In this document: piece by piece, positions 15,784 to 42,784 of the stretch
Position numbering within the stretch: position 1 is the stretch's first letter
Layout of the letters: every line of letters begins with the position of its first letter
Assembly: GCF_965641715.1 (NCBI RefSeq)
Contig: NZ_OZ282453.1
Length of the DNA: 64,000 nt
Strand: one strand, 5' to 3'
DNA from: Escherichia coli
Lineage (GTDB): Bacteria > Pseudomonadota > Gammaproteobacteria > Enterobacterales > Enterobacteriaceae
The notes under the pieces: generated by a model
Told to the model about the DNA's origin: nothing
Databases searched by the model: none
The model's input: only the letters and a program-made list of their open reading frames with translations
Made by a program: the position numbers and the translations under genes

Positions 15784-17275
<1,492 letters not shown>

Positions 17276-17301: not shown

Positions 17302-18180
17302 TTACTGGCTCGCCGCAGCCAATTCTTCCTCTGACAGCCCGGTAAAGCGCATGATGTCTGCAAGAGGGACTCCGGATTCAAGCATTATTTTGGCTATATG
17401 CAGGGCTTTGGATTGTTCCCCCTCCTGCCGCAATCTTTCCGCAATAGTCATTAAACTCTCCTTGTGTATCGGTGATCGTTCGGCAACGCCGTCGATAAAA
17501 TCGTTAAAACGTACCGCATCGCCGGTTTGCAGTATGTAATTAAACAGCCCTTTGATTTGTCTGTCATTAGCGTATCCACTACTTAATAAGCAGGCCATTT
17601 GCTCTACCAGCCCCATCAGGTCGCGTTGACGAATATGTTTTTGAATTAACTCCAGCAGCGCCATACGTCGGTGCTGCATGATTTCATCATCAGGCATGAC
17701 GGTGACATCAATCAGCGGAAATGCAGAGGCATAAAGCTGCCTTGCCAGGTTGGGATCGGCGAAACGATCCAGCCAACACAGCGAATAGGGATAGGGGCTT
17801 TCAATACCGTGATAAAACAACAATGGCACCACCATCGGCAACGTTTTGTATCCGGCATCAAGGTGATTTTGCATTGCGGCAATGGCGTAACGCATCATGC
17901 GGAATGCGATCAGTTTGTTTGAGGTGCTTTGATGTTCAATCAGACAATAGATGTATCCTGGTCCTTGTTCTGTTTTCACCGACCACAGCACATCGGAATA
18001 GCTTTCACGCAGATCGTCATCAATAAAGCTGCTCGACTCCAGCTTGAGGGTTTTCATATCACAGAGCGCGTGAATGGGTGCCGGTAAATGAAACGCAAGA
18101 AAATCGCGTGCCGTGTCCGGTTGGCGTAAAAAGAGTTTGAACAGCGCATCGTGTGGGGTGGAACTCTGCTTTTTGCTCAT
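17302..18180 (-). CDS. rpnA: Transposase_31-family recombination-promoting nuclease RpnA/YhgA (292 aa)
   Basis: ORF begins [33 protein letters not shown], the conserved N-terminus of YhgA-like (Rpn) proteins. Confidence 0.85.
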
Positions 18181-35903: not shown

Positions 35904-38456
35904 TCAGAACAATTCCTGTGCCTCGCCATTATCGATAATGGTCGTTCCCACCTCGTGCACCGCCTGTTGTGTCGGCTGCGTACCTTCGATGAAATACTCT
36001 TCGCGGCTGTTGCCACCATTAGCTAACTGCCCGGTGCTGCGATCGATATTCACCGTCACAATACCCGGCGGCGGCGTCAGCGGCTGCTCCGGCACACCTT
36101 CAAGAACGGCTTTCATATAAGCGTCCCATGCAGGCTGGGCACTCTTGGCACCGCCTTCGTAACCTGAGATCTGATCTTTAATCGCTCCGGAAGCCGTTGT
36201 ATGACCGAGATTACGACGGTGATCATCAAAGCCAATCCAGACCGAGGTCACAACGCCCGGTCCGTAACCCGAGAACCACGCATCTTTCGAACTGTTAGTG
36301 GTACCGGTTTTCCCGCCGATATCGCGACGCTGCAAATCACGACCTGCACGCCAGCCAGTACCCTGCCAGCCTGGCTCACCAAAGATATTGGTGTTCAAAG
36401 CACTCTTAATCAGGAATGCCAGCGGAGTGTTGATGACGTGCGGTGCGTACTCCTGCGCGCCAGTCTTCGCCACTAATGCCTGATTTGCCTGCTCCAGCTG
36501 CGGCATTGGTACAGAAACATTCTGCTGCTCGCGGGAGATAGCGACATCTTCAACATCGTTATTTTCCAGCACGTTCGATTTCTGCGTATCACCGTAAATC
36601 ACCGGAATATCACATTCCGGGCAGGCTACTTTCGGTTTCGCTTCGAAAATCACGCCGCCCTGATCGTTTTCAATTTTGCTGATAAACCACGGGTCCACCA
36701 GGAAGCCGCCGTTCGCCATGACCGCGTAGCCGCGCGCCACCTGCATTGGAGTGAAGGACGCTGAACCCAGCGCCAGCGATTCGGTGTGGACAATGTTTTG
36801 CGCCGGGAAGCCGAAGCGTTGCAGATATTCTGCAGCGTAGTCGACGCCCATCGCCCGCATTGCGCGTACCATCACCACGTTTTTCGACTGACCCAGCCCC
36901 TGACGTAAGCGAATTGGACCGGCATACTGCGGTGGTGAGTTCTTCGGCTGCCAGTCAGAACCGGCACCTGCATCCCAGCGAGAAATTGGCACATCGTTCA
37001 ACATACTTGCCAGCGTCAGACCTTTATCCATCGCCGCGGTGTAGAGGAACGGTTTGATGTTGGAACCTACCTGACGCAGTGCCTGGGTGGCGCGGTTAAA
37101 CTTGCTCTGATTGAAATCAAAGCCACCGACCAACGCCATAACGGCACCGTTTTGCGGATTGATCGACACCAGTGCCGAGTTCACTTCCGGCACTTGTGCC
37201 AGCCACCATGCATCGCCAACCTGACGAACCCAGATTTGCTGACCCGTTTGCAGAACATCGGTCACTTTACGCGGCGTCGGTCCTTGCTGAGTATCCGAAC
37301 GGTAAGGACGCGCCCAGCGAACGCCTTCCATACTCAATGCGACGGTCGACCCGTCCGCCAGCATTGCCGTCGCTTCCTGAGGATTGGCGCTGGTGACTGC
37401 GGCAGGCAGCAGCGGACCATAGGTTGGCAGCGCCTTCAGCGTATCGGTAATCTTGTTGTTATCCCACGCCGACTCGCCCACTTTCCACAGCACATTTGCC
37501 GGGCCGCGATAGCCGTGGCGCATGTCGTAGTCCAGCACGTTATTACGTACCGCCTGCTGTGCGGCCTGCTGCACTTTGCGGGTGATGGTGGTGTAAATGC
37601 GATAACCGTCTTCATAGGCACTTTCGCCATAACGGTTATACATCTCCTGGCGCACCATTTCGCTCAGGTACGGCGCAGAAAAAGCAATCTCCGGCGCGTG
37701 ATAGTTAGCGTTAATCGCCTCAGTGCGTGTCTGATCGAACTGTTGTTGGGTGATATACCCTTCATCCAGCATCCGCGATAGCACGACGTTACGCCGCGCG
37801 ACGGCACGATCCATCGAGTAGAGCGGGTTGAAGGTGGAAGGCGCTTTCGGCAGCCCGGCTATCACCGCCATTTCGTTCAGCGTCAGTTGGTCGACCGTTT
37901 TTCCGAAATAGACTTGTGCCGCAGCACCGACACCATAGGCGCGGTAACCAAGGTAAATCTTGTTCAGATAAAGCTCGAGGATTTCGTCTTTCGTCAGCAA
38001 CTGTTCAATGCGAATCGCGAGGAAGACTTCCTTAATCTTACGCATCAGCGTGCGTTCTGGACTGAGGAAGAAATTTCTCGCCAGCTGCTGGGTAATGGTA
38101 CTCGCCCCTTGTGACGCGTGACCGGAGAACAGCGCCACACTTGCCGCACGGAAGATCCCCACCGGGTCAACGCCGTGATGCTCGTAGAAGCGGCTGTCTT
38201 CTGTCGCGATAAAGGCTTTCACCATCTCCGGCGGGATTTGATCCAACGTAACCGGAATACGACGTTTCTCACCGTATTGAGCAATCAGCTCGCCATCGGC
38301 GCTGTAAATCTGCATCGGAATTTGCAGGCGAACATCTTTTAATGTCGCCACATCCGGCAGTTGTGGCTCGATGTAGCGGTATAGGCCATAAATCGAGCCT
38401 GCTCCCAGCAGAATGCAACAGACTGCAAGGATCAAAAAATACTTTACGAACTTCAC
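35904..38456 (-). CDS. mrcA: Penicillin-binding protein 1A (MrcA), 850 aa from GTG start
   Basis: Glycosyltransferase motifs (EDSRFYEHHGVD) and transpeptidase SxxK/SxN/KTG motifs (e.g. GGKTGTT). Start taken at GTG complement 38454-38456 (MKFVKYFLILAV). Confidence 0.95.
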   Translation of the reverse strand: MKFVKYFLILAVCCILLGAGSIYGLYRYIEPQLPDVATLKDVRLQIPMQIYSADGELIAQYGEKRRIPVTLDQIPPEMVKAFIATEDSRFYEHHGVDPVGIFRAASVALFSGHASQGASTITQQLARNFFLSPERTLMRKIKEVFLAIRIEQLLTKDEILELYLNKIYLGYRAYGVGAAAQVYFGKTVDQLTLNEMAVIAGLPKAPSTFNPLYSMDRAVARRNVVLSRMLDEGYITQQQFDQTRTEAINANYHAPEIAFSAPYLSEMVRQEMYNRYGESAYEDGYRIYTTITRKVQQAAQQAVRNNVLDYDMRHGYRGPANVLWKVGESAWDNNKITDTLKALPTYGPLLPAAVTSANPQEATAMLADGSTVALSMEGVRWARPYRSDTQQGPTPRKVTDVLQTGQQIWVRQVGDAWWLAQVPEVNSALVSINPQNGAVMALVGGFDFNQSKFNRATQALRQVGSNIKPFLYTAAMDKGLTLASMLNDVPISRWDAGAGSDWQPKNSPPQYAGPIRLRQGLGQSKNVVMVRAMRAMGVDYAAEYLQRFGFPAQNIVHTESLALGSASFTPMQVARGYAVMANGGFLVDPWFISKIENDQGGVIFEAKPKVACPECDIPVIYGDTQKSNVLENNDVEDVAISREQQNVSVPMPQLEQANQALVAKTGAQEYAPHVINTPLAFLIKSALNTNIFGEPGWQGTGWRAGRDLQRRDIGGKTGTTNSSKDAWFSGYGPGVVTSVWIGFDDHRRNLGHTTASGAIKDQISGYEGGAKSAQPAWDAYMKAVLEGVPEQPLTPPPGIVTVNIDRSTGQLANGGNSREEYFIEGTQPTQQAVHEVGTTIIDNGEAQELF

Positions 38457-38575
38457 TGGAAATTTCCCATTTAGTTTCATTTGGGCAGTTTATAAACAAA
38501 CACGCGGTAGTATAAAGGCAAGCCAGACGCATTGATATACCCGTCAGAGTGACGGGTGATAAGGAGATCATCACA

Positions 38576-39355
38576 ATGGCATTTAAGATCTGGCAAATTG
38601 GTTTGCATTTACAACAGCAAGAAGCGGTAGCGGTTGCTATTGTGCGGGGCGCAAAAGAATGCTTTTTGCAACGCTGGTGGCGGTTGCCGCTGGCGCACGA
38701 CATTATCAAAGATGGGCGGATTGTTGATGCGCAGCGGCTGGCTAAAACGTTGTTACCGTGGAGTCGCGAACTGCCGCAGCGCCATCACATCATGTTGGCG
38801 TTTCCCGCCAGTCGCACATTACAGCGGTCATTTCCGCGCCCGTCGATGTCCCTCGGTGAGCGGGAGCAAACGGCCTGGCTTTCCGGGACGATGGCCCGCG
38901 AGCTGGATATGGATCCGGACTCCCTGCGCTTCGATTACAGCGAAGACTCACTCAGTCCCGCCTATAACGTGACTGCCGCGCAAAGCAAAGAGCTGGCAAC
39001 GCTGCTTACTCTGGCAGAAAGGTTGCGTGTTCATGTTAGTGCGATCACCCCGGATGCCAGTGCATTACAGCGATTCCTGCCTTTTTTACCTTCTCATCAG
39101 CAATGTCTGGCCTGGCGTGATAACGAACAGTGGCTGTGGGCGACGAGCTATCGCTGGGGGCGCAAACTGGCGGTGGGGATGACTAGCGCGAAGGAGCTGG
39201 CGGCAGCGTTATCCGTTGATCCCGAAAGCGTCGCGATATGTGGCGAAGGCGGATTTGATCCCTGGGAGGCCGTTTCTGTTCGTCAGCCGCCGTTACCGCC
39301 GCCAGGTGGAGACTTTGCCATCGCGCTGGGGCTGGCGCTTGGGAAGGCGTACTGA
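38576..39355 (+). CDS. hofM: DNA-utilisation / type IV pilus assembly protein HofM (PilM-like), 259 aa
   Basis: Start MAFKIWQIGLHLQQQEAVAVAIV preceded by a strong AAGGAG Shine-Dalgarno; first gene of a five-gene hofMNOPQ block. Confidence 0.88.
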   Translation: MAFKIWQIGLHLQQQEAVAVAIVRGAKECFLQRWWRLPLAHDIIKDGRIVDAQRLAKTLLPWSRELPQRHHIMLAFPASRTLQRSFPRPSMSLGEREQTAWLSGTMARELDMDPDSLRFDYSEDSLSPAYNVTAAQSKELATLLTLAERLRVHVSAITPDASALQRFLPFLPSHQQCLAWRDNEQWLWATSYRWGRKLAVGMTSAKELAAALSVDPESVAICGEGGFDPWEAVSVRQPPLPPPGGDFAIALGLALGKAY

Positions 39356-39894
39356 TGAACCCGCCAATTAATTTTTTGCCCTGGCGACAGCAACGCCGGA
39401 CCGCTTTTCTTCGTTTCTGGTTGCTGATGTTCGTTGCGCCTCTGCTGCTGGCCGTCGGGATAACGCTAATACTGCGTCTGACAAGCAGCGCCGAAGCGCG
39501 CATAGACGCCGTTTTGCTTCAGGCGGAACAACAACTCGCCCGCAGCTTACAGATAACGAAACCACGTTTGCTGGAGCGCCAACAAATTCGTGAGCAGCGT
39601 TTGCAAAGGCAGCGCCAGCGACAATTTACCCGCGACTGGCAATCTGCGCTGGAAGCACTGGCGGCGCTTTTACCCGAGCACGCCTGGCTGACAACGATAA
39701 GCTGGCAGCAGGGAACGCTGGAGATCAAGGGGTTGACAACAAGCATTACCGCGTTAAACGCACTGGAAACGTCACTCCGCCAGGATGCGTCTTTTCATCT
39801 CAATCAGCGGGGAGCCACGCAGCAGGATGCGCAGGGACGCTGGCAATTTGAGTATCAGTTAACAAGGAAGGTTAGCGATGAACATGTTCTTTGA
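39355..39894 (+). CDS. hofN: HofN (PilN-like), 179 aa
   Basis: MNPPINFLPWRQQRRTAFLRFWLLMFVAPLLLAVGITLIL (single N-terminal TM segment); 1-bp overlap (TGATG) with hofM. Confidence 0.88.
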   Translation: MNPPINFLPWRQQRRTAFLRFWLLMFVAPLLLAVGITLILRLTSSAEARIDAVLLQAEQQLARSLQITKPRLLERQQIREQRLQRQRQRQFTRDWQSALEALAALLPEHAWLTTISWQQGTLEIKGLTTSITALNALETSLRQDASFHLNQRGATQQDAQGRWQFEYQLTRKVSDEHVL

Positions 39895-40318
39895 CTGGTG
39901 GTTCGCCATATCACCCCGCCTCCGCCAGTTTTGCTGGGCAGTCTGGTTGCTGATGTTAGTTACGCTCATTTTTCTGTCATCGACACACCATGAAGAGAGC
40001 GACGCATTAATTCGACTACGGGCAAGTCATCACCAGCAGTGGGCCGCACTGTATCGCCTGGTAGACACCACTCCCTTCAGCGAGGAAAAAACGCTGCCCT
40101 TTTCGCCACTGGATTTTCAGTTATCCGGCGCGCAACTGGTTTCCTGGCATCCATCCGCGCAGGGAGGTGAGTTGGCGTTGAAAACGCTGTGGGAAGCAGT
40201 GCCGTCGGCATTTACACGGCTGGCAGAGCGCAACGTCAGCGTGAGCCGTTTTTCGTTAAGCGCGGAAGGTGATGATCTTTTGTTCACGCTACAACTGGAG
40301 ACGCCGCATGAGGGTTAA
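39878..40318 (+). CDS. hofO: HofO (PilO-like), 146 aa
   Basis: MNMFFDWWFAISPRLRQFCWAVWLLMLVTLIF; 17-bp overlap with hofN. Confidence 0.85.
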   Translation: MNMFFDWWFAISPRLRQFCWAVWLLMLVTLIFLSSTHHEESDALIRLRASHHQQWAALYRLVDTTPFSEEKTLPFSPLDFQLSGAQLVSWHPSAQGGELALKTLWEAVPSAFTRLAERNVSVSRFSLSAEGDDLLFTLQLETPHEG

Positions 40319-40712
40319 ACGCTGGTTGTTGGCAGGTATTGCATTGTGCCTTTTAACCGGTATGCGTGACCCTTTTAAACCGCCGGAAGATCTATGCCGG
40401 ATTAGCGAACTTAGCCAGTGGCGCTATCAGGGGATGGTAGGGCGAGGCGAGCGCATCATCGGTGTAATAAAAGACGGGCAAAAGAAATGGCGACGGGTGC
40501 AGCAAAACGATGTGCTGGAAAACGGCTGGACAATTTTACAGCTGACGCCAGACGTACTAACGCTGGGTACCGGGACAAACTGCGAACCGCCACAATGGTT
40601 GTGGCAACGGCAAGGAGATACAAATGAAGCAATGGATAGCCGCACTACTGTTGATGCTGATACCCGGCGTACAGGCGGCAAAGCCGCAAAAAGTGACGCT
40701 GATGGTGGATGA
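40308..40712 (+). CDS. hofP: HofP (PilP-like lipoprotein), 134 aa
   Basis: MRVKRWLLAGIALCLLTGMRDPFKPP (signal peptide / lipobox-like LTGM); overlaps the hofO 3' end and the hofQ 5' end. Confidence 0.85.
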   Translation: MRVKRWLLAGIALCLLTGMRDPFKPPEDLCRISELSQWRYQGMVGRGERIIGVIKDGQKKWRRVQQNDVLENGWTILQLTPDVLTLGTGTNCEPPQWLWQRQGDTNEAMDSRTTVDADTRRTGGKAAKSDADGG

Positions 40713-41862
40713 CGTTCCGGTAGCTCAGGTGTTGCAGGCGCTGGCTGAACAGGAGAAGTTGAACCTGGTGGTGTCGCCAGACGTCAGCGGTACGGTGTCG
40801 TTACATCTAACAGATGTTCCCTGGAAGCAGGCACTACAAACTGTAGTGAAAAGCGCCGGACTGATAACGCGCCAGGAGGGCAACATTCTCTCAGTGCATT
40901 CCATTGCCTGGCAGAATGACAATATCGCCCGTCAGGAAGCGGAGCAGGCGCGGGCGCAGGCAAATCTGCCGCTGGAAAATCGCAATATTACTCTGCAATA
41001 CGCCGACGCCGGAGAGCTGGCGAAAGCTGGGGAGAAGCTACTGAGCGCCAAAGGGAGTATGACCGTCGATAAACGCACCAATCGCCTTTTGCTACGAGAT
41101 AACAAAACGGCGTTAAGCGCCCTTGAACAGTGGGTAGCGCAAATGGATCTGCCGGTCGGGCAGGTTGAGCTGTCGGCGCATATTGTCACCATTAATGAAA
41201 AAAGTTTGCGTGAGTTAGGCGTGAAATGGACGCTGGCCGATGCGCAACAAGCTGGTGGCGTTGGGCAAGTCACCACGCTTGGCAGCGACCTCTCCGTAGC
41301 GACGGCGACAACGCATGTCGGTTTTAACATTGGGCGCATCAATGGACGTTTGCTGGATCTTGAGCTTTCTGCGCTCGAACAAAAACAGCAGCTGGATATT
41401 ATCGCTAGTCCGCGTCTGCTGGCCTCACATCTTCAGCCTGCCAGCATTAAACAGGGGAGCGAAATTCCATATCAGGTTTCCAGCGGGGAAAGTGGCGCGA
41501 CGTCGGTGGAATTTAAAGAGGCAGTCCTGGGGATGGAGGTCACGCCCACGGTGTTACAAAAAGGTCGCATCCGGCTGAAATTACACATCAGCCAGAACGT
41601 TCCGGGGCAGGTGCTACAGCAGGCCGATGGCGAAGTGCTGGCGATTGATAAGCAGGAGATCGAAACGCAGGTCGAGGTCAAAAGCGGAGAAACGTTGGCG
41701 CTGGGCGGCATTTTTACCCGTAAAAATAAATCGGGTCAGGATAGCGTGCCGTTGCTTGGCGACATTCCCTGGTTCGGGCAATTATTTCGTCATGACGGAA
41801 AAGAAGATGAACGACGCGAGTTAGTGGTGTTTATCACGCCACGACTGGTTTCCAGTGAGTAA
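40624..41862 (+). CDS. hofQ: Outer-membrane secretin HofQ (412 aa)
   Basis: MKQWIAALLLMLIPGVQAAKPQKV signal peptide; secretin C-domain (..VLQKGRIRLKLHISQNVPG..GETLALGGIFTRKNKSGQDSVPLLGDIPWFGQLFR). Confidence 0.93.
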   Translation: MKQWIAALLLMLIPGVQAAKPQKVTLMVDDVPVAQVLQALAEQEKLNLVVSPDVSGTVSLHLTDVPWKQALQTVVKSAGLITRQEGNILSVHSIAWQNDNIARQEAEQARAQANLPLENRNITLQYADAGELAKAGEKLLSAKGSMTVDKRTNRLLLRDNKTALSALEQWVAQMDLPVGQVELSAHIVTINEKSLRELGVKWTLADAQQAGGVGQVTTLGSDLSVATATTHVGFNIGRINGRLLDLELSALEQKQQLDIIASPRLLASHLQPASIKQGSEIPYQVSSGESGATSVEFKEAVLGMEVTPTVLQKGRIRLKLHISQNVPGQVLQQADGEVLAIDKQEIETQVEVKSGETLALGGIFTRKNKSGQDSVPLLGDIPWFGQLFRHDGKEDERRELVVFITPRLVSSE

Positions 41863-42262
41863 ACAGCCGTAAAAGCGGTAATGTTTTTACGCTGAACGTG
41901 TTTCATCTATTTGACGCGCGCAGGTATTTAGCATACAAGGAGTACCGATTTGAGAGTTGGTGCTCTTCGCTGCCTGCGTTCCATGATGATGATTTATCAT
42001 TCAGGCGGCATTTTGCTGTCTTTTTTACGCTAATCTTACCCGGTGATTTATCGCCAGAGCGGTGGTAGCAAGGCAGCGCGCTTGCAGCGACCAGATATGC
42101 AGAGGGATGGGTGATTTATTCAGTTGCCAAACCCGCTGGAGTATTGAGATAATTTTCAGTCTGACTCTCGCAATATCTTATGAGGTTTCAGTTCATGTCC
42201 TGCGGCGCTCTCTGAGCGAAGCGGGTTTATCATTAACGAATAGTCTTAGTAGTACCGAAAAA

Positions 42263-42784
42263 ATGGCAGAGAAACGCAATATCTTTCTGGTTGGGCCTAT
42301 GGGTGCCGGAAAAAGCACTATTGGGCGCCAGTTAGCTCAACAACTCAATATGGAATTTTACGATTCCGATCAAGAGATTGAGAAACGAACCGGAGCTGAT
42401 GTGGGCTGGGTTTTCGATTTAGAAGGCGAAGAAGGCTTCCGCGATCGCGAAGAAAAGGTCATCAATGAGTTGACCGAGAAACAGGGTATTGTGCTGGCTA
42501 CTGGCGGCGGCTCTGTGAAATCCCGTGAAACGCGTAACCGTCTTTCCGCTCGTGGCGTTGTCGTTTATCTTGAAACGACCATCGAAAAGCAACTTGCACG
42601 CACGCAGCGTGATAAAAAACGCCCGTTGCTGCACGTTGAAACACCGCCACGTGAAGTTCTGGAAGCGTTGGCCAATGAACGCAATCCGCTGTATGAAGAG
42701 ATTGCCGACGTGACCATTCGTACTGATGATCAAAGCGCTAAAGTGGTCGCTAACCAGATTATTCACATGCTGGAAAGCAACTAA
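42263..42784 (+). CDS. aroK: Shikimate kinase I AroK (173 aa)
   Basis: [28 protein letters not shown] (Walker A). The 67-codon in-frame upstream extension in the ORF track was not used. Confidence 0.95.

Follow-up and report, generated by a model that had tools for sequence, protein, structure and literature searches.

The hofMNOPQ operon of Escherichia coli very probably encodes the alignment subcomplex and secretin of a silent type IVa pilus/competence machine and carries a long, conserved hofP/hofQ overlap

The hofMNOPQ genes of Escherichia coli are orthologous to Haemophilus comA-E and to Pseudomonas and Vibrio pilMNOPQ, and the V. cholerae PilQ and H. influenzae comA-E systems share with them a role in DNA uptake and control by CRP-S sites and Sxy (TfoX) (PMC1635313). 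In E. coli itself, Sxy-dependent natural transformation is abolished in a hofQ::kan mutant (Sinha and Redfield, PMC3330819); hofQ contributes to kidney colonisation by uropathogenic E. coli (UPEC; PMC2649431); enterohaemorrhagic E. coli (EHEC) makes PpdD type IV pili (PMC2920817); and hofB, hofC, hofMNOPQ, the minor pilins, and gspO, when combined on plasmids, give rise to pili in E. coli, PpdD pili included. Here we analyse the hofMNOPQ cluster in a 64,000-nucleotide stretch of E. coli DNA (RefSeq assembly GCF_965641715.1, contig NZ_OZ282453.1), the whole of which we call the window. Annotation or published work already covers the operon, its boundaries and overlaps, and its Sxy/CRP-S control, as well as the parts it plays in DNA uptake, DNA catabolism, piliation, and UPEC persistence. 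We conclude, with a probability of about 0.93, that the hofMNOPQ products make up the outer-membrane pore and the envelope-spanning alignment subcomplex of a type IVa pilus/competence machine that is silent and controlled by Sxy and by CRP with cyclic AMP (cAMP). An earlier sequence-only reading of the window had linked these genes to the use of DNA as a nutrient "rather than" to a visible pilus; because Sxy-induced uptake that depends on hofQ (PMC3330819) and real PpdD pili (PMC2920817 and the pilus plasmids) have both been published, that wording is too narrow and out of date.

The operon consists of five co-oriented genes:

38576-39355, plus strand: hofM, 259 amino acids (aa), ATG start, AAGGAG Shine-Dalgarno (SD) sequence
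39355-39894, plus strand: hofN, 179 aa, ATG start, TGATG junction, 1-bp overlap with hofM
39878-40318, plus strand: hofO, 146 aa, ATG start, 17-bp overlap with hofN
40308-40712, plus strand: hofP, 134 aa, ATG start, 11-bp overlap with hofO
40624-41862, plus strand: hofQ, 412 aa, ATG start, 89-bp overlap with hofP

A direct coordinate check finds an ATG at the start of all five open reading frames (ORFs) and a single stop codon at the end of each, and the boundaries equal those annotated by RefSeq in the best-matching E. coli genome and in K-12 MG1655 (b3391-b3395). The five genes and their coordinates had been read correctly from the sequence, as had the overlaps of 1, 17, 11, and 89 bp, which are exact to the base and whose geometry recurs in orthologs. 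In the annotation of the best-matching genome, mrcA lies upstream of hofM and is divergent from it, and aroK-aroB-damX-dam follow hofQ. The E. coli K-12 operon (b3395-b3391; formerly yrfD, yrfC, yrfB, yrfA, and hofQ) has the same locus, order, lengths, overlaps, and neighbours, with 96.9-100% nucleotide identity per gene and 0-6 amino acid changes per protein, differences that are allelic only; the window thus stems from an E. coli strain other than K-12. Of 5426 complete E. coli genomes searched by megablast with positions 38000-42500, 5425 have a match, with identities of 95-99.4%, and in 5424 it covers at least 80% of the region. The region, we conclude, corresponds to the hofMNOPQ operon as already annotated in E. 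coli, and its overlaps are real, conserved, and ordinary.

HofQ passes two curated models, those for HofQ (NCBIfam NF007851, DNA uptake porin HofQ; 856.2 bits against a cut-off of 598, residues 1-412 aligned to model positions 1-412) and for PilQ (TIGR02515; 448.1 bits against 284.35), and is accordingly predicted to be an outer-membrane secretin. Its domains run in the order STN/N0, Secretin_N (N1), and Secretin, all three with Pfam scores above cut-off; among solved structures V. cholerae PilQ is the closest (6w6m, E=2e-74, residues 23-409), and the HofQ periplasmic domain 2y3m is also among the matches of the HofQ profile in the PDB. The N-terminal signal peptide, as read from the sequence, is MKQWIAALLLMLIPGVQA, with AKP following in the mature part. 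This signal peptide bears directly on the suggestion that the long overlap might be an annotation artefact, hofQ in fact starting downstream of the hofP stop or hofP ending earlier. Nothing specific speaks for an artefact beyond the fact that long same-strand overlaps are often start-codon mis-calls, whereas i) the annotated Met opens a canonical signal peptide, MKQWIAALLLMLIPGVQA/AKP, which a secretin needs and which any hofQ start past the hofP stop would remove; ii) the NF007851 alignment begins at residue 1 of both sequence and model; iii) of 80 orthologous loci, found in one scan of species-representative genomes of Escherichia, Citrobacter, Salmonella, Enterobacter, Klebsiella, Kluyvera, and others, 79 keep the hofQ start codon together with an SD-like core (4 nucleotides or more); and iv) hofP has no in-frame stop ahead of 40710, a stop position common to most of the orthologs. 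A hofQ start after the hofP stop is thus rejected on signal peptide, SD sequence, and conservation, and we consider an artefact scarcely credible.

HofN passes the curated Pfam model for PilN (PF05137, 38.2 bits against a cut-off of 22.8) and is best regarded as a bitopic inner-membrane PilN homologue. Its N-terminus reads [I/V]-N-[F/L]-L-P-W-R, followed by a hydrophobic stretch; across 78 orthologs N6, W10, and R11 are invariant, while L8 and P9 are each kept in 92%; we take the I-N-F-L-P-W-R motif to be that of the N-terminal peptide by which PilN binds PilM. Two PDB entries, 5eou and 2ych, are by title PilM bound to the PilN N-terminal peptide. The HofM family profile, built from 35 species, matched only PilM in the PDB (3jc8_Ma, E=2.6e-5; 2ych, E=9.5e-3), with HofM 2-170 collinear with PilM 37-215. 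An AlphaFold2 (AF2) model of HofM has a pLDDT of 90.6 and a pTM of 0.88, and in a Foldseek search with it P. aeruginosa PilM took each of the first 8 places (E=1e-13 to 3e-12, TMq 0.55-0.72), followed by the GspL/EpsL cytoplasmic domain and FtsA. HofM would therefore be a cytoplasmic protein with an actin-like two-lobed fold, PilM-like by predicted fold only.

The hofM and hofN frames are joined in Citrobacter amalonaticus AUH_CA_2023_1 (locus L012:3933-5252), where an extra G in a run of G directly ahead of the hofM stop (G7, against G6 in L013) brings hofM into frame with hofN and creates a 439-aa HofM-HofN fusion ORF. This is probably a homopolymer sequencing error. The fusion product would mimic GspL of the type II secretion system, with a PilM-like domain, a transmembrane (TM) helix, and a PilN-like domain.

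Comparison of predicted folds gives HofO an N-terminal TM helix, a coiled coil, and a C-terminal ferredoxin-like domain matching PilO structures, so that HofO appears PilO-like only by predicted fold. HofP belongs to a Pfam family of its own, separate from PilP (HofP, PF10748; 266.7 bits). It has a signal peptide, a conserved core at about residues 19-103 with invariant C30 and C92, and an unconserved tail at 104-134; in 35 aligned sequences the hydrophobic region gives way to a conserved G-M-R-D-P-F. PilP accounts for 3 of the 6 matches of the HofP profile in the PDB, namely M. xanthus 3jc8_Pa (E=3.9e-3) and N. meningitidis 2ivw (E=0.47) and 4av2_M (E=1.5), all of them marginal. From its sequence HofP appears to be a periplasmic protein that is only marginally PilP-like. 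The labels proposed at the outset, PilM/N/O/P-like proteins followed by a secretin, are thus upheld by curated models for HofN and HofQ, by fold only for HofM and HofO, and marginally for HofP.

In the type strain of Escherichia albertii (NBRC 107761; L004:5255-6090), hofO and hofP each contain a single nonsense codon, at codons 70 and 34, respectively. The remainder of both genes is still conserved and hofQ is 97% identical; the nonsense codons may represent recent inactivation of scaffold genes in that lineage.

In published work on control of the operon, two CRP-S sites were predicted in the yrfD (hofM) promoter, one at -246 (Cameron and Redfield, PMC1635313). CRP binding there is weak but specific, the fragment used in an electrophoretic mobility shift assay (EMSA) being shifted by CRP, and yrfD is induced 16-fold by Sxy in a manner absolutely dependent on CRP and cAMP (PMC1635313). 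Enterobacterial promoters have two predicted CRP-S sites, compared with one in the Vibrio and Haemophilus systems (PMC1635313). The corresponding segment of the window is:

38300-38575, plus strand: hofM regulatory region, comprising the mrcA-hofM spacer (38457-38575) and the 5′ coding end of mrcA

The published EMSA primers yrfDF and yrfDR (PMC1635313) map to 38300-38319 and 38404-38425, which places the CRP-binding fragment (38300-38425) wholly within the 5′ coding region of the divergent mrcA (PBP1a); the same bases therefore serve as mrcA codons and as hofM regulatory DNA. (mrcA is an essential-pathway gene; its minus-strand 5′ coding region lies at 38300-38456.) A scan found no plus-strand consensus sigma-70 promoter before hofM, an absence that fits an activator-dependent promoter. 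In ordinary culture the operon stays silent, very probably because transcription from the mrcA-hofM region requires both CRP-cAMP and Sxy, acting at weak CRP-S sites.

Several results weigh against the identity we propose for the cluster: i) HofM scores only 15.9 bits with the PilM model TIGR01175 (cut-off 133), and its only Pfam match is a sub-threshold one to T2SSL; ii) HofM is ~95 residues shorter than PilM (about 350 aa in full), a shortening which the collinear profile match assigns to the C-terminal half, and HofM is about as similar to the non-ATP-binding cytoplasmic domain of GspL, whose size is also alike; iii) the HofO family profile has no match among PDB sequences, its PilO likeness coming from fold comparison only; iv) neither HofO nor HofP passes the curated PilO and PilP sequence models; v) HofP has no lipobox, in that no Cys is conserved at the end of its signal peptide in the 35 aligned sequences, while PilP is a lipoprotein; vi) a simple weighted-consensus CRP scan of 38200-38580 did not single out the published CRP-S 22-mers, CRP-S sites being defined by TGCGA-type half-sites with C6/G17; and vii) the opening energies given below, on which the translational model rests, come from computed folding.

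In the arrangement we favour, HofM would clamp onto the conserved peptide at the HofN N-terminus; HofN and HofO, both bitopic inner-membrane proteins, would pair through their periplasmic ferredoxin-like domains; periplasmic HofP would link HofN/HofO to the secretin; and a HofQ multimer would form the outer-membrane channel through which the PpdD fibre passes out and DNA passes in. The ppdD pilin, the hofB ATPase, the hofC platform, the minor pilins, and the ComF-like gntX are encoded elsewhere.

Silent genes might also be genes in decay, and the cluster could be an evolutionary relic whose genes are deteriorating without function in E. coli: transcription of yrfD-hofQ was poor or undetectable in culture in earlier studies, divergence is much faster in HofM, N, O, and P than in HofQ, and the E. 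albertii type strain and Citrobacter koseri NCTC10786 have nonsense codons or disruptions. Yet the ratio of nonsynonymous to synonymous substitution rates (dN/dS), calculated against other Escherichia species, is 0.02-0.04 for hofQ, about 0.1 for hofM, about 0.15 for hofN, about 0.2 for hofO, and 0.22-0.35 for hofP, and the genes rank similarly against Salmonella and Citrobacter. Purifying selection on all five genes (dN/dS 0.02-0.35) indicates a cluster that is silent rather than decaying, and a pseudogene relic is rejected on this ground; the genes are moreover intact, with identical lengths in the window and K-12, the region is present in 5424 of the 5426 complete E. coli genomes, and hofQ mutants have published phenotypes. 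We therefore hold decay to be highly improbable. HofQ is far more constrained than the scaffold proteins, being 97% identical to its E. albertii counterpart where HofO is 74% identical.

Across Enterobacteriaceae, HofQ is 67-98% identical and HofM, N, O, and P fall to 30-55%. Rates thus differ strongly inside a single operon, dN/dS climbing step by step from hofQ (0.03) by way of hofM, hofN, and hofO to hofP (0.2-0.35). In C. koseri NCTC10786 (L038), the hofM and hofN ORFs are truncated and the HofQ match begins at residue 38, and the operon appears disrupted.

The gene order M-N-O-P-secretin, with all genes co-oriented, is kept in the 80 orthologous loci, and so in large part are the junctions, whose lengths in orthologs were computed to the first in-frame stop codon. 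M and N overlap by 1 or 4 bp in 59/78 loci, N and O by 17 bp in 46/76, and O and P by 11 bp in 64/77; the P/Q overlap is 89 bp in 37/79 loci, 80-98 bp in 64/79, and at least 59 bp in 73/79, with outliers that span 4 to 140 bp. Since the same geometry recurs in 80 other Enterobacteriaceae loci, the pattern is not a chance feature of the window.

The starts at these junctions differ in their translation signals. SD-like motifs are strongest before hofM and hofQ (AAGGAG in both) and weaker before hofN, hofO, and hofP, and the energy needed to open the messenger RNA (mRNA) from -18 to +12 around each start, computed in a 140-nucleotide context, varies as follows:

hofM start: 7.4 kcal/mol in the window, ortholog median 9.5
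hofN start: 9.6 kcal/mol in the window, ortholog median 15.3
hofO start: 9.0 kcal/mol in the window, ortholog median 14.0
hofP start: 14.6 kcal/mol in the window, ortholog median 13.5
hofQ start: 4.8 kcal/mol in the window, ortholog median 5.4 (79 loci)
random operon positions: 13.7 ± 4.1 kcal/mol

The ortholog medians for the hofN, hofO, and hofP starts (13.5-15.3 kcal/mol) are about those of random operon positions (13.7), and it is plausible, on this folding model, that hofN, hofO, and hofP rely on ribosomes arriving from the upstream gene, with coupling at the short overlaps. The end of hofP is arranged otherwise:

40612-40617, plus strand: hofQ SD sequence AAGGAG, inside hofP, with the ATG 6 nucleotides downstream
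40624-40712, plus strand: hofP/hofQ dual-coding overlap, read in the hofQ frame as the signal peptide plus the first residues of the mature protein and in the hofP frame as the HofP tail

Because the hofP stop lies 89 nucleotides past the hofQ start, termination-reinitiation coupling is unlikely at hofQ, and we infer that hofQ initiates autonomously at its ribosome-binding site, which is the strongest and the most open one of the operon. A consensus scan found no sigma-70 promoter for hofQ inside hofP. The operon would thus combine two modes of translation, hofN, hofO, and hofP being coupled within structured mRNA and hofQ being autonomous within a dispensable-looking 3′ tail of hofP. The sequence-only reading had taken all four overlaps to imply translational coupling; this fits the structured starts at the 1-, 17-, and 11-bp junctions, but not hofQ, with its strong SD sequence, open ribosome-binding site, and distant hofP stop.

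For the 89-bp overlap, an incidental origin is clearly favoured over a functional one. HofP conservation ends at G103, within the motif C-E-P-x-x-W-x-W-x-R-x-G and two codons ahead of the hofQ ATG (in hofP codon 106); over the 29 residues of the HofP tail that lie inside hofQ, no position is conserved and the length is variable. The hofP stop codon, TGA, is made up of the T of HofQ D29 (GAT) and the GA of the next Asp/Glu codon, and so sits in the near-invariant V-D-D/E motif of HofQ (GTG GAT GA). The hofP frame would simply continue beyond its core until the HofQ V-D-D codons happen to provide a TGA, and the overlap is most probably an incidental by-product of this running on.

The alternative is that the overlap is a selected dual-coding element, with either the HofP tail or the passage of ribosomes through it being functional; it might set the HofP:HofQ stoichiometry by translational coupling or occlusion, or the tail might contact the secretin. 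The long overlap is indeed kept in the 73 of 79 loci mentioned above despite about 40% HofP identity, and hofP dS (synonymous divergence) is about half that of neighbouring genes. HofQ D29 is encoded by GAT in 71/77 sequences (92%); GAT makes up 40-81% at the 8 other conserved Asp columns compared, so that the stop-forming codon is the most T-biased of the 9. In addition, hofQ codons 1-30, within the overlap, show reduced variability at four-fold-type synonymous sites (p=7e-4). Together, the mild excess of GAT at D29 and the lower variability of hofQ codons 1-30 hint, if weakly, at a dual constraint, and count to that extent against an incidental origin. On the other side, the tail lacks any conserved residue and a fixed length; the overlap varies between 4 and 140 bp, being as short as 4 or 38 bp in five loci; low synonymous variation is common at 5′ ends and signal peptides even where no genes overlap; a first rank among 9 Asp columns does not reach significance; the phylogenetic relatedness of the species means that the counts are not independent; and the hofQ ribosome-binding site is strong and open, needing no unfolding by upstream ribosomes. 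Selection for a dual-coding element therefore seems unlikely, and its more specific form, in which selection keeps the hofP frame open across the hofQ start with the stop fixed in the V-D-D codons, a little less likely again. Were the overlap selected, ribosomes ending hofP would modulate initiation at hofQ and thereby set the ratio of scaffold to secretin or, alternatively, the basic, Gly-rich HofP tail would contact the secretin.

Beyond the operon, the following features were located in the window:

15784-16467, minus strand: gntX (ComF family), identified with NCBIfam models, ATG at 16467
41866-42031, plus strand: candidate operon terminators from a consensus scan, two hairpins (41866-41879 and 42003-42021) with a T-run after each

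The ComF-like gntX had been placed about 22 kb from the cluster, and this is correct: the distance to the hofM start is 22.1 kb, and the protein passes both the NCBIfam GntX equivalog (431 bits, cut-off 304) and the ComF model TIGR00201 (271 bits, cut-off 233.6). gntX is an unlinked member of the same competence regulon as hofMNOPQ. Adjoining the bioH-gntX pair is rpnA, a recombination-promoting nuclease gene of the Rpn/transposase-like family (17302-18180, minus strand). The 400-bp hofQ-aroK spacer (41863-42262) is 100% identical to that of K-12, compared with 22 differences in 1239 positions of the flanking hofQ, and it contains a sigma-70-like promoter at 42124-42153 (10/12 matches, extended -10 TG), presumably for aroK. 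The total count of terminator-like sites is not above shuffle expectation, so that the hairpins in this spacer are weak candidates. An Rfam scan of the whole window found no RNA family at the gathering threshold, and hence no known riboswitch or small RNA in or beside the operon.

To what was annotated or published, the present analysis adds a test of the PilM/N/O/P labels and the observation of purifying selection; the persistence of the 89-bp overlap across Enterobacteriaceae even though the HofP tail is unconserved; and a computational case for autonomous translation of hofQ next to hofN, hofO, and hofP starts that look coupled. These results could help in designing constructs for the reconstitution of the E. 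coli type IV pilus or DNA-uptake machine.

Compared with the described machines, hofMNOPQ has the same five-gene order and predicted topology as PilMNOPQ of P. aeruginosa and M. xanthus, although sequence identity for M and O is only about 10-15%, HofM is the shorter protein by the ~95 residues noted above, and HofP is without the lipoprotein Cys of PilP. The secretins differ mainly at their N-termini: the HofQ match to Neisseria-type PilQ (745-761 aa) begins near PilQ residue 322-338, and its best stretch in P. aeruginosa and M. xanthus PilQ (714-901 aa) runs from residues 522-717 onward, so that HofQ, which matches only the C-terminal part of these proteins, is without their long N-terminal regions; V. 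cholerae PilQ has about 157 more N-terminal residues than HofQ. Type II secretion systems differ in that i) HofM and HofN are separate proteins, not one GspL; ii) HofQ scores 193 against the GspD equivalog cut-off of 351; and iii) the hof cluster encodes no GspC-like HR/PDZ protein.

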